A DNA stretch of 64,000 bases, taken from a virus. Taxonomy: Duplodnaviria > Caudoviricetes. Of the stretch, positions 326 to 62,255 are shown piece after piece. The stretch lies in IMG/VR virus record IMGVR_UViG_3300033463_000004, positions 160,001 to 224,000 of that record. One strand, 5' to 3'. The notes beneath the pieces were generated by a model. That model did no database searches and was not told where the DNA came from. It saw only the letters and a list, made by a program, of their open reading frames with translations. Positions within the stretch are counted from its first letter, which is position 1. Each line of letters opens with the position of its first letter. The position numbers and the translations under genes were made by a program.

Positions 326-1858
326 TTACACCTCAACATTTAATGTGAGGCGATGATAGTCCGGAATACTTACAACACCGTTTGTGACATCCAAATCCTG
401 TGAAAATTGCATGATGGTCGAAGTTTCACCATTCTCAATAGAGATTAATGACGGACCATTCATCTCGAGATGTGTTACTCCCGTATTTGTAATGACGTAT
501 TTGCCAATTTCAATTGGCCATGATATTTCACAATATTGGAGTGAGTTCTCATCGATTGTAATGTCATTCTGTTCTTTTAATAGTAATATGACATATGTAG
601 CATGTTCAGGACGTGTTGAATCACCGGATAATGTATGCCATGTTGAATCCATTTGTATGAATTCATGATTGGAATTATAATATGCTGCTTTCCATACCAT
701 ATCTGTCGAATCTGTTGCTTGGGCTGATACATTCAACATCTGTGTCAAACCAGTTTCAATTTCAGGAGATCGAATGACATTTGTAATTGTATCATCATGA
801 GTTCCAGTAGTTGGATCAATTGAACCTTGTTCCCAAGCCAATGACGTGATATCTTGTGTTGTTTCACCTTCATCAATAGAAATTCCATCACCAGCAACAT
901 ATTCAGGAACTTCGCCTGATCCAGTTACCCATAAAACACCTTGCGAATTGACAGATAAACCATTGCCGACAATAACACCACCAAGTGTTTCCGTTGTTGC
1001 TGGTTCAATTGTTACTCCTTCGACCGTTTTCCATGTACCTTCCGCGGATAAGAATTTATCTTTATCAGCAGGATATGGTGCTGGTACCATACCGTCAGTA
1101 CCAGCATGCAAACCGTCAGTTCCTTCAAACACTTCATAGTTTTGCAAACTTGCAAGCTTTTCTTTTTCTTCACGAGTATATGACGCAGTAGTATCATTTA
1201 AGATATCAATGTTATTGTGTATATGTGCTTTTTCTTGTAATTCTTCGATATCTTCTTTGACTTCAGTGTCATCATAATTTTCCAAACTCGCAAGTTTTGT
1301 TTTTTCTTCACGAGTATATGGTGCAGTTGTTTGATCTAAAATATCTTTGTTCGCATGTGTATGTGAAGCATTTTCCAATCGGTTAATTGTTGGCATAATT
1401 TCAACACGTTTCACATATGCAGATAAGTCAACATCAAAAGCTCCACCAATAGAAATCCATTTACTATCATTCCATAAATATGTTATTGGATCTGGATATC
1501 CTGGATTATTTACAAATCGAATTTCTCCAAGTTTATTGCCAGTGATTGGTAATGATTCTTTTGTCGGATAAATTTGAGTTGATGGAATTGATACAGCTTT
1601 CAGATTTGTAATGATTCTGTCAACTTGTTCTTTTGTGTAATAATTGGATAAATCTCCACCTTCTCCACCTATATATGGGAGTTGACGATAATATTTATCA
1701 CCCTCGCCAACTTTCAATTTGGTGAGTCCTTCTGGAAATAATTCTATACACAGAACACCGCGTGGAATAGGCCAGTTTGCAATACCGGCTTCTGTCCACT
1801 GTTTGGATGTTCGGATGACATGTTCGAAATGATCATATTGAACATTTTGTGAAGCCAT
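326..1858 (-). CDS. tail fibre protein with Mtd/hyaluronidase-like N-terminal domain
   Basis: N-terminal W..P.G..CIE...KLKVGEG..Y..LPY; duplicated HxHxNxDILxxTTAxYTREEKxKLASLxNY unit; PATTETLGGVIVG motif; RBS AAAGGAGG. Confidence 0.7.
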   Translation of the reverse strand: MASQNVQYDHFEHVIRTSKQWTEAGIANWPIPRGVLCIELFPEGLTKLKVGEGDKYYRQLPYIGGEGGDLSNYYTKEQVDRIITNLKAVSIPSTQIYPTKESLPITGNKLGEIRFVNNPGYPDPITYLWNDSKWISIGGAFDVDLSAYVKRVEIMPTINRLENASHTHANKDILDQTTAPYTREEKTKLASLENYDDTEVKEDIEELQEKAHIHNNIDILNDTTASYTREEKEKLASLQNYEVFEGTDGLHAGTDGMVPAPYPADKDKFLSAEGTWKTVEGVTIEPATTETLGGVIVGNGLSVNSQGVLWVTGSGEVPEYVAGDGISIDEGETTQDITSLAWEQGSIDPTTGTHDDTITNVIRSPEIETGLTQMLNVSAQATDSTDMVWKAAYYNSNHEFIQMDSTWHTLSGDSTRPEHATYVILLLKEQNDITIDENSLQYCEISWPIEIGKYVITNTGVTHLEMNGPSLISIENGETSTIMQFSQDLDVTNGVVSIPDYHRLTLNVEV

Positions 1859-14444: not shown

Positions 14445-14468
14445 ACGAGTACGCTCCTTTCATTTAGA

Positions 14469-14483
14469 GTTACAGAACCGTTT
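14469..14483 (-). promoter_or_regulatory. putative late promoter
   Basis: AAACGGTTCTGTAAC. Confidence 0.6.
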
Positions 14484-14485
14484 GA

Positions 14486-14506
14486 TGTGGGGCACATAGC
14501 CCCACA
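14486..14506. terminator. hairpin insulating divergent promoters
   Basis: TGTGGGGC-ACATA-GCCCCACA. Confidence 0.55.
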
Positions 14507-14514
14507 AAATCGCG

Positions 14515-14544
14515 ATTTTCATATATATATTATTATTATGAATA
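14515..14544 (+). promoter_or_regulatory. putative early promoter, 30 bp identical to 62226-62255 (minus)
   Basis: ATTTTCATATATATATTATTATTATGAATA present twice; AT-rich like AR9-type early promoters. Confidence 0.65.
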
Positions 14545-14581
14545 AAAGAAATCCATGGTGGATCGAAAGGAGATGATAGAT

Positions 14582-14638
14582 ATGAGTGAAATCGTAATTA
14601 TCACCATCCCTGTAGACACTGAAATCATCTGTGAATGA
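14582..14638 (+). CDS. 18-aa peptide MSEIVIITIPVDTEIICE
   Basis: GAAAGGAG RBS; homologous peptide at 33329-33388. Confidence 0.6.
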   Translation: MSEIVIITIPVDTEIICE

Positions 14639-14781
14639 TAATGTGTGACGAGTCCCCAATTTAACTCGGAACGTCAGAAACCATGAATTTCTAATATTCA
14701 TTATAAGAAGGGTAAGAAACCCTAAAACAATTAAATCCCTCACGCCACGAGGGATGCAACAGAATCAAGGAGGAACTTATT

Positions 14782-15369
14782 ATGAAAGATTACAAAAGAG
14801 AACTGAGTTTTGCAGAAGACCGTCTGCAAAAATACGTCGCAAAACGAGATGAAATAATCTCGCTTTATGGAGCAACATTTGTACCGAAAGAGCTCGAGAA
14901 TACGATTATCGAAGCTCAAAACGAAGCATATGCCGCAAAAGCGGCATATGAAGCACAGTTGTTAACCAACAGCAATTGTGCTACTGTAAGAGCAAATACT
15001 AAAATCGATCGTTTAGTATTCGCTCGAAACAATGTTGAATTCTATCGCTCGCGGAAGAGCGATGGTTCATCATGGGGTATCGCGTTTATCAGTACTGATA
15101 AACGAGTTGATTGTTGCATCATGATGTCGGAGACATCCGGCAGCGCAACAATTCTCAGCTTCAACCCGGCTGAGAAAACAATTTTAAACGAATATGTTAT
15201 CGACATCGACAACGCCAGAGCACATGAAGACCTTTGGTCTGTCATGTGCACCGCAGGTTTCGATTACCTGCAAGAGGCTGAATTGAAATATATTCAGACT
15301 CAAATTTTAACCGAGCTTAAAAACCTCGGTTATACAGAGCAGGGTCTGCGACTCTGCAAAGAATTCTAA
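14782..15369 (+). CDS. hypothetical early protein (N-terminal coiled coil)
   Basis: 195-aa ORF, AAGGAGG RBS. Confidence 0.7.
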   Translation: MKDYKRELSFAEDRLQKYVAKRDEIISLYGATFVPKELENTIIEAQNEAYAAKAAYEAQLLTNSNCATVRANTKIDRLVFARNNVEFYRSRKSDGSSWGIAFISTDKRVDCCIMMSETSGSATILSFNPAEKTILNEYVIDIDNARAHEDLWSVMCTAGFDYLQEAELKYIQTQILTELKNLGYTEQGLRLCKEF

Positions 15370-33245: not shown

Positions 33246-33328
33246 TTTTTTTATATATTTACATATATATACTTTTAAAGATGAGCTAATGTTCACACAA
33301 AATTATGTCACCAAAAGAATGTGAAAAC

Positions 33329-33388
33329 ATGACTGAAGAAATCGTCATTATTCAGATTCCGAAAGGAACTGAAATTATCTGTGAATGA
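33329..33388 (+). CDS. 19-aa peptide MTEEIVIIQIPKGTEIICE
   Basis: homologous to 14582-14638; follows ACATATATATAC promoter-like motif; weak RBS. Confidence 0.5.
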   Translation: MTEEIVIIQIPKGTEIICE

Positions 33389-33482
33389 CAGTCACAGATA
33401 TTGAATATATAATATAACTCATTCGCTATCCGAAAACGAGGTGATATATGTGTGAACCATAACTCATTATCAGATTAGGTAA

Positions 33483-47188: not shown

Positions 47189-47672
47189 GTTTACCGTGAG
47201 AATCAACGGCATTCCGCTCCATAAATGGTATCTGTACAATGAAGAGGGTATGCAGCATGTATGTCCTGAATGCGGGCATGTTGCCACTGTATCACAGAGC
47301 GAACTTGAACTGTGTCAAACATTGCAGCCTCGTGGTGTCAACATGTTCTCAAGACTGTATGAGAAAGTTGCACCACATATTCAATGCGTGAAATGTGGTT
47401 TTCGCAATCCGTATTGGATGTTCTGCATTCGGAAATATTCGAAAGAACTGACAATTGCCGATGTTGTCAAGAATTCGATCTCTAAAAAGATCTTTGATGA
47501 TCGGTCAATAATCTTTGATATGCCTTATACTCCCAGAGAGAATTGGGTTTGGAATCATTTGGCCAAGGATTTCGAAGGGGATACCATTGATACAATTTAT
47601 CTCACACCCAAACGTGGGCAATCACGAATGTGGCGTGGTTTGACAAAAGCATATACAAACTTTGGAGGTTAA
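47178..47672 (+). CDS. Zn-ribbon protein
   Basis: CPECG...CVKCG. Confidence 0.6.
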   Translation: MERKFTVRINGIPLHKWYLYNEEGMQHVCPECGHVATVSQSELELCQTLQPRGVNMFSRLYEKVAPHIQCVKCGFRNPYWMFCIRKYSKELTIADVVKNSISKKIFDDRSIIFDMPYTPRENWVWNHLAKDFEGDTIDTIYLTPKRGQSRMWRGLTKAYTNFGG

Positions 47673-62126: not shown

Positions 62127-62225
62127 GGGTTTCCTCACTTTCTCCCGCTGTGCGGGTTGCGACGGCGTTAAGCTTTTACGCCGTCTATTATTTATTTTCT
62201 TTGAATATTAGATAATACTATCTTC

Positions 62226-62255
62226 TATTCATAATAATAATATATATATGAAAAT
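62226..62255 (-). promoter_or_regulatory. putative early promoter driving the RAMP operon
   Basis: identical to 14515-14544. Confidence 0.65.

Follow-up and report, generated by a model that had tools for sequence, protein, structure and literature searches.

A conserved micro-gene family with a predicted end-paired messenger in an uncultured AR9/PBS1-like jumbo phage and its relatives

Described systems and the phage under study

Several described systems resemble parts of the locus reported here. The peptides of type I toxins are hydrophobic and membrane-spanning, with about 19 or more mostly apolar residues. The 5′ stabilisers of Bacillus (the aprE and ermC leaders, SP82 early RNA) combine structure at the 5′ end with a strong ribosome-binding site (RBS) nearby, dual-function small RNAs such as RNAIII/hld and SR1/SR1P carry a small open reading frame (ORF), and stems processed by RNase III flank rRNAs and the early genes of T7. 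To our knowledge, annotation hardly ever includes phage proteins that are very small. The available parts of two papers describe the PeSL cassettes of T4-type phages, where a stem-loop and an early promoter bracket very small ORFs and whole cassettes are present or absent (PMC2839356, PMC4122927). In phage AR9, the early promoters were defined by dRNA-seq and primer extension as AAATATATATTAT-N6-G+1, and the accessible portion of the paper on AR9 early transcription mentions no micro-gene of the kind reported here (PMC5312081).

The stretch of DNA that we analysed (64 kb, hereafter the window) covers bases 160001-224000 of one virus record of 262,694 bp (G+C 37%). The phage encodes subunits of split multisubunit RNA polymerases (PHROG 3148 and 2987), whose closest cultured relatives, at about 27-30% identity, belong to the Staphylococcus jumbo phages SA1 and S6, the Bacillus phages PBS1 and Goe21, and the Yersinia phage phiR1-37. 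Because of these split RNA polymerases and their nearest cultured relatives, we class the phage, from its sequence, as an uncultured AR9/PBS1-like jumbo phage. Its close relatives are metagenome assemblies, with sample labels that resemble ruminant-gut studies.

The cassette studied here places a very small ORF inside a helix that closes a predicted RNA. With the Bacillus 5′ stabilisers and the dual-function RNAs it shares a structure at the extreme 5′ end, a strong RBS nearby and a short, structured, translated RNA; here, however, the partner of the 5′ end is a distant 3′ segment and not the other half of a local hairpin, and the peptides make up a new family. Its likeness to the early units of AR9 and PBS1, as these appear in the available text, consists of an AT-rich 13-mer, six bases and G+1, along with related split multisubunit RNA polymerases (PMC5312081). 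In the present phage, the initially transcribed GAATAAAAG is also conserved and is used as a strand of the long-range helix. As in the PeSL cassettes, to the extent that the accessible parts of those papers describe them, a hairpin and a promoter precede all three copies, and indels the size of a cassette occur at all three sites (A, B and C); but the promoter belongs to the AR9 virion-polymerase type and not to sigma-70, one peptide recurs in every cassette, and each ORF has an RNA helix of its own around it. Nor is the context T4-like: this is an AR9/PBS1-like phage with its own RNA polymerases, and sigma-70-like matches are at chance level. The nearest known kinds are small early phage genes and fold-back mRNAs, and the gene together with its fold is undescribed. 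We conclude that this is a conserved, uncatalogued micro-gene family with an unusual, well-supported messenger architecture.

The cassettes, their promoters and the closing helix

The features of the two copies in the window are listed in Table 1. For copy B, the original prediction had paired 14538-14559 with 14680-14701 just after a promoter motif, and the sequence confirms pairing at 19 of 22 positions, the mismatches being A-A, A-A and C-A; the 5′ arm proposed then began 2 nt before the predicted start G14540. An RBS (AGGAG), an 18-codon ORF and a TGACG/CGTCA hairpin, which the stem had been said to enclose, all lie inside it. The ORF ends in two in-frame stops (TGA 14636-14638, TAA 14639-14641). 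The 181-nt stretch of copy B folds at -44.3 kcal/mol, against -30.5 ± 3.7 kcal/mol for 200 dinucleotide shuffles (z = -3.7), none of which did as well. Copies A and C and the orthologous cassettes are also preceded by a G+C-rich hairpin similar to that of copy B. On the other side of copy B, neither of the two leader hairpins is followed by a U-run on the + strand, and the 195-aa gene has no PHROG or Pfam match.

Table 1. Positions in the window of the features of copies B and C
Feature	Position	Strand	Remark
G+C-rich hairpin GTGGGGC-ACATA-GCCCCAC	14487..14505	.	Between the divergent 2321-aa gene and the cassette
Copy B predicted AR9-type early (virion RNA polymerase) promoter TTTTCATATATATATTATTATTAT, then G+1	14516..14539	+	12/13 AR9 consensus positions
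Copy B closing helix, 5′ arm	14540..14559	+	Begins at predicted transcription start G14540
Copy B Shine-Dalgarno AGGAG	14568..14572	+	9 nt ahead of ATG 14582; orthologues: AGGAGGTGAT
Copy B micro-gene, 18 codons, MSEIVIITIPVDTEIICE, tandem stops TGA TAA	14582..14641	+	
Copy B inner 3′-UTR hairpin TGACG...CGTCA	14646..14676	+	Kept in L017 and L025; different in L018, L011 and L031
Copy B closing helix, 3′ arm	14680..14699	+	Final C pairs with G+1
Two short leader hairpins, GGG..CCC and CCCTC..GAGGG	14710..14753	+	Between the cassette and the next gene
195-aa gene downstream of copy B	14782..15369	+	The cassette makes up the 5′ end of its leader
Copy C degenerate early-promoter-like stretch ACATATATATACT-TTTAAA, then G33280	33261..33279	+	10/13 of the phage's core
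Copy C closing helix, 5′ arm	33280..33299	+	Begins at predicted G+1
Copy C micro-gene, 19 codons (MTEEIVIIQIPKGTEIICE) + TGA	33329..33388	+	No recognisable Shine-Dalgarno site
Copy C stop-codon hairpin	33376..33400	+	I-C-E codons pair with downstream complement; stop codon in loop
Copy C closing helix, 3′ arm	33449..33471	+	

A search of the whole genome for the peptide motif, proposed along with the prediction, gave three copies (A, B and C), and further ones exist in metagenomic relatives: the I-I-C-E-stop codon pattern has exactly 3 matches in the genome and its reversed control 0. Copy C is the homologous peptide that had been placed 19 kb away in the same architecture, and its ORF and helix are as expected (Table 1); it lies in the 5′ leader of a Metallophos phosphoesterase gene. 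Copy A (genome 47207-47383, ORF 47258-47314) lies outside the window and is a stand-alone unit between two terminators, without a downstream gene, with a closing helix of 21 bp and one mismatch. The stems of copies B and C had been described as different in sequence. Beyond the first 5-9 bases they are; up to there, directly after the predicted start, both have GAATAAAAG, since this is part of the conserved start region of the promoter.

The promoter motif named in the prediction is real, as CATATATATATTATT-N5-G occurs 3 times in the 64-kb window against 0.17 expected. The copy B promoter has the same spacing as the AR9 early consensus given in the accessible part of the AR9 paper (PMC5312081). 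The version of the promoter used in this phage is sharper (TTTTCATATATATATTATT-N5-G, then AATAAAAG) and has about 20 genome sites with at most 2 mismatches; copy B has a perfect site, and its predicted G+1 (14540) coincides with the start of the 5′ arm. The related metagenomic cassettes all have this arrangement of promoter and helix. In copy C the promoter is weakened and the predicted G+1 (33280) is again the first base of the helix, and copy A retains only the start-proximal part (TTATAATGAATAAAA), its AT-rich half being gone. Most likely, an AR9-type promoter directs early transcription of copy B by the virion RNA polymerase that is injected, the early timing and the start sites being read from sequence alone. 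As a general rule of early transcripts, a 5′-terminal hairpin is only a trend: helices at the 5′ end are found at 8 of 20 predicted early starts genome-wide, against 21% of random G-starting 45-mers (p = 0.07).

A late promoter was considered for copy A and rejected, as the strong motif AAACGTTTCNGTAAC stands ahead of about six genes and of no cassette. This motif is found in the window at 14464-14477 (-) and at five other genome sites, 15-25 nt ahead of the RBS of about six genes, including the 2321-aa gene. With G at its fourth position, it agrees with the AR9 late consensus AACA-N6-TA, and the late promoters that it marks are probably the strongest of the phage.

To compare cassettes between phages, we used a degenerate-codon scan of JGI metagenomes (12 matches, three of them true: L011, L017 and L018) and contigs anchored on the neighbouring RNA polymerase gene, which yielded L025/L026 and L031-L033. 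The resulting eight distinct cassettes of this type (type 1) are the three paralogues and five metagenomic relatives, four of which are at the B locus. Nucleotide 1 is paired with the last nucleotide in the minimum-energy fold of 8/8 cassettes. Their terminal duplexes have energies of -16.5 to -28.3 kcal/mol and comprise about 18-23 bp plus short inward extensions. Past the first five base pairs, the arm sequences vary among cassettes while complementarity is kept. A joint MAFFT alignment of the eight cassettes did not bring the 3′ arms of A, C and L011 into register; hence, covariation was counted on the five B-type sequences and complemented with the duplex energies of cognate and non-cognate arms. 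When the first five pairs are left out, the mean energy is -18.2 kcal/mol for cognate arms and -6.9 kcal/mol for non-cognate ones. The cognate arm ranks first in 6/8 rows and second in the two others, which have arms nearly identical to those of L017. RNAalifold returns the closing helix as the consensus structure of the five B-type sequences. In this alignment (A2), the 18 helix pairs have 92% of their cells paired, with double (compensatory) changes at six pairs; 0/500 shuffles of the alignment match its paired fraction or covariation score, and sliding the partner by 1-3 columns lowers pairing to 30-54%. These comparisons show that the closing helix is kept by compensatory changes and is under selection, the covariation and the cognate arms bearing out the earlier claim of a selected fold. 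Five pairs into the B-type helices there is a 2x2 internal loop of purines, which is conserved. Searches of Rfam gave no family at the gathering threshold (the best scores were 28 bits where 141 were needed and 30.6 where 56 were needed).

A second, small hairpin spans the I-C-E codons, with the stop codon in its loop. It is seen in copies A and C and in the sister cassettes L052, L054, L056 and L057 described below; the positions include window 33376-33400 (copy C) and L034 ~800-830. Where the Cys codon changes synonymously between TGT and TGC, the partner strand carries A or G to match. A scan of IMG/VR for this hairpin gave 3 matches, all chance.

Copy B probably gives an RNA that starts at G14540 and whose first ~20 nt pair with a segment ~140 nt downstream, which would thus hold both ends of an RNA domain of ~160 nt in one helix. 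This domain would carry a Firmicute-type RBS and the 18-codon ORF; since the ORF and its RBS are 20-40 nt from either arm, translation would be possible with the helix closed. By analogy with the known 5′ stabilisers, the helix would shield these ends from RNases that depend on the 5′ or the 3′ end (RNase J1, RNase Y entry and 3′ exonucleases, for a Firmicute host).

The encoded peptide and its sister family

The eight type-1 copies have the consensus M-[STR]-[EN]-[IV]-V-I-I-x-[IV]-P-x-[GDE]-T-E-I-I-C-E. Pairs of them differ by 2-10 synonymous codons and only 1-6 non-synonymous ones, giving a dN of 0.03-0.33 with a dS of ~0.5 up to saturated (uncomputable by the Nei-Gojobori method). The replacements are concentrated at positions 8, 11 and 12, or are Ile/Val swaps. 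In 7/8 copies, an AGGAG(G)TGA of Firmicute type lies 5-9 nt ahead of the ATG; it is absent in copy C. Since synonymous change is saturated and dN is low, the substitutions show that the peptide is under purifying selection, and since a non-coding RNA would not give such a pattern, that the ORF is a protein-coding gene. The original prediction had also held the peptide to be selected, and the further copies show conservation at the codon level.

Beyond these cassettes, sequence searches gave little. Copies B and C have no nucleotide match by blastn in 50,697 phage records, a 27-aa extended frame gave nothing by tblastn against public phage records, and a pattern scan of IMG/VR for P-x-x-T-E-I-I-C-E-stop gave 0 matches. 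Single-protein searches of IMG/VR with the two genes adjoining the cassette found no relatives, and a scan of species genomes found chance matches only, in unrelated MAGs. Gene callers miss the micro-ORF, and the only member of the family that is called is a read-through variant of 51 aa, which among 1.84 billion protein representatives matches only itself. In this variant (L031:15515-15670 (-), also in L032 and L033), the stop TAA has become CAA, and the ORF continues across the 3′ UTR into the clamp (our term for the closing helix), whose 3′ arm it reads through. As the stop is lost and the ORF runs through the 3′ arm in these contigs, the design tolerates disruption.

The peptides have 16-20 residues, 25-44% of which are Ile/Val/Leu, and an invariant I-I-C-E C-terminus; the 18-mer contains neither Lys nor Arg. 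They show a beta-branched run, a P-x-G/D turn and a second short strand, with one face wholly apolar, from which one would expect the variable positions to be exposed. The earlier description of an acidic, strand-turn-strand peptide without a membrane helix is upheld, as the net charge is -2 to -5 and the longest apolar run is of 7-8 residues. These properties bear on the idea that the cassette is a module like type I toxin–antitoxin systems, whose fold-back mRNA would be inert until processed, as in hok, and would encode a toxic peptide. The cassette does share with hok/sok-type mRNAs a small ORF within 5′-3′ end pairing and a compact, presumably stable RNA, and the Shine-Dalgarno site is almost fully paired in L017, L025 and L031 (P(unpaired) 0.02-0.03). 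Yet P(unpaired) ranges over 0.02-0.60 across the eight copies, sequestration is overall no stronger than in shuffles (1/8 copies falls under the 5% tail), and the site of copy A is more open than in its shuffles, so that we rejected RBS occlusion as a selected feature. An apolar run of this length is too short for a membrane helix. Antisense to any copy, we found no early or strong late phage promoter motif, and sigma-70-like matches are at chance level. Finally, in contrast to hok/sok, the peptide is acidic and the gene is present in three to five copies, behind an early promoter, in a lytic jumbo phage. As the original prediction had it, the likeness to type I toxins is limited to the layout, and we give very little credence to a toxin–antitoxin function.

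A scan of IMG/VR for YIPxTxGSIIICE identified two further jumbo phage records, of 258 and 251 kb, that encode a sister peptide, M-x-E-[IV]-Y-I-P-[DN]-T-x-G-[SC]-I-I-I-C-E, of 16-20 residues. Scans of the whole records gave four and five true copies, with 0 control matches. A polymerase subunit of these two phages is 54-56% identical to that of the present phage. Both peptide types have an E-[IV] start, an I-P and an I-I-C-E end; judged from these sequences, their homology is likely, if not proven. Each sister cassette has an RBS of the AGGAGGTGA type, and a simple scan finds closing helices of 20-28 bp in 6/9, with arm sequences unrelated between copies; in the remaining copies, clamps are visible in folds from the predicted start. 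What is conserved between the two families is thus the design (micro-ORF, I-I-C-E end, closing helix) and not any one sequence. The clamp begins at +1 in three sister copies (L049, L055 and L057). Three others (L052, L054 and L056) have a separate strong 5′ hairpin ahead of it, which implies that the clamp is not simply a 5′ cap. Three sister copies have no early promoter. One sister cassette, with a 16-residue peptide and the I-I-C-E end, lies at L060 ~800-1000 (-), which corresponds to G002:76.7-76.9 kb, about 0.6 kb downstream of the RNA polymerase beta′ gene. The same gene precedes copy C in the present phage, and this placement may be conserved.

These longer helices raise the question of whether the closing helix is chiefly a processing site for RNase III, which would excise a mini-mRNA out of longer transcripts, early or read-through, and separate it from the downstream gene, with the peptide still being the product. 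Excision has to be considered seriously because the longer, near-perfect helices resemble RNase III substrates: they span 18-28 bp and are near-perfect in several copies, such as copy A and sister copies with 28 bp. Copy A, which lacks a good promoter, may need to be excised from read-through RNA, and the clamps of L052, L054 and L056, where a separate hairpin caps the transcript, need another role. That the helix begins exactly at the predicted +1 in copies B, C, L049, L055 and L057 fits the capping of an end better, and the 2x2 purine internal loop and the mismatches of the B-type helices may disfavour RNase III. As the chief role of the helix, we therefore regard processing as possible, if clearly less probable than end protection. 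The two are compatible, and excision deserves serious weight alongside end protection, above all in copy A and in those sister copies where a separate 5′ hairpin comes first: within an end-protected messenger, RNase III may also cut the helix, which would free a long-lived, context-independent mini-mRNA.

Presence and absence among relatives and possible modes of action

The relatives differ in their content at each of the three sites. At the B site, which extends from the 2321-aa gene to the next early gene, they keep the early promoter, and the sequence after it varies. A plain hairpin, with its start at +1 or no more than 5 bases from it, is present in L021 and L024; in L022, a similar clamp surrounds a hairpin and no ORF; and both forms are followed by the same downstream leader. 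L025 and L031 have the full cassette. L055 was discarded as an orthologue of the B locus, as its divergent neighbour is a 648-aa gene and not the 2321-aa gene. Copy C is missing from a relative whose adjacent polymerase subunit is 89% identical, where the gap is 146 nt instead of 306 nt and the early transcript begins with GATGA, like that of copy C. Copy A is missing at its site from every relative examined, which have gaps of 44-54 nt with one terminator instead of 296 nt; the insert brought a second G+C hairpin, which is why copy A lies between two terminators. Given these patterns at the A, B and C sites, the cassette behaves like a movable block that lands after an early-type start, and the comparison shows a multi-copy unit whose gains and losses involve the whole block, immediately after such starts.

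Two observations in these leaders stand on their own. In L022 the clamp (15200-15290 (-)) pairs GAAUAGAAGAUAAU with AUUAUCCGAUAUUC and has only a hairpin inside. Ahead of different early genes in several related phages we also find a conserved module made of a AAUAGACGGCG hairpin, GCAAC, a second G+C hairpin and then the RBS (window ~62140-62230 (-); L011:6215-6290; L018:3915-3975; L022 ~15160-15230 (-)), which may be a regulatory RNA element.

Insertion relative to close relatives, with the repeat as the boundary, is also what one would see if the inverted repeats acted on DNA, as MITE-like terminal repeats or recombination sites, and the RNA helix were a by-product; a hairpin and promoter sequence precede each cassette, as in the shuffling units of PeSL. 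The arms tell otherwise: they differ between copies past the first 5-9 nt while their complementarity is kept, which is the opposite of repeats recognised by a transposase, and among orthologues at one fixed locus there are compensatory changes as well as G-U pairs. The insertion sites showed no target-site duplication. We accordingly rejected a MITE-like element, and consider any explanation at the DNA level very improbable.

The same comparisons bear on whether the peptide acts in cis or in trans. Copies B and C are in 5′ leaders, those of the 195-aa protein and of the phosphoesterase, and the ORF could be a leader peptide for the downstream gene, either an arrest peptide, an attenuator that senses Ile/Val or a 5′ stabiliser that loads ribosomes. 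The high Ile/Val/Leu content would suit such a role, as would the covariation of the hairpin over the last codons and stop with the synonymous Cys codon, and arrest peptides are likewise conserved in sequence. A pure Ile sensor, however, would not need the invariant T-E-I-I-C-E; the downstream genes are unrelated to each other; and between cassette and next gene there is neither a terminator/antiterminator alternative nor a U-run. Copy A, moreover, has its own terminator and nothing to lead into, and orthologous leaders exist without the ORF. Because copy A is without a downstream gene and relatives at the B site have the same leader but no ORF, we favour action in trans over a role as a leader, which we consider improbable.

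The reading that we prefer, and hold to be rather probable, is that the cassette is a movable, end-protected mini-mRNA for an acidic beta-hairpin peptide that acts in trans. As the pattern of its residues suggests, the peptide probably binds a protein of the host or of the phage through its hydrophobic face. An early role in host takeover or as a mimic, raised in the original prediction, is compatible with these results. A bolder version, unlikely in our judgement, is that of a portable, nuclease-proof module of rumen jumbo phages of the AR9 lineage, in 3-5 copies per genome and placeable behind any early start, that floods the cell with an acidic I-I-C-E beta-hairpin peptide and so blocks an abundant host machine stoichiometrically or tunes the phage polymerase or nucleus-like compartment.

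Across a clade of giant gut phages, strong selection thus maintains a peptide of 18 residues, of which each genome has several copies. If the clamp gives resistance to end-dependent RNases, it would be a simple natural design for the stable expression of micro-proteins; if true, this would also hint at how early phage RNA survives the destruction of host RNA. If the bolder version is true, the phage effector and the messenger that delivers it would both belong to new classes. Being so small, the peptide can be synthesised, which makes direct fishing for its target feasible.
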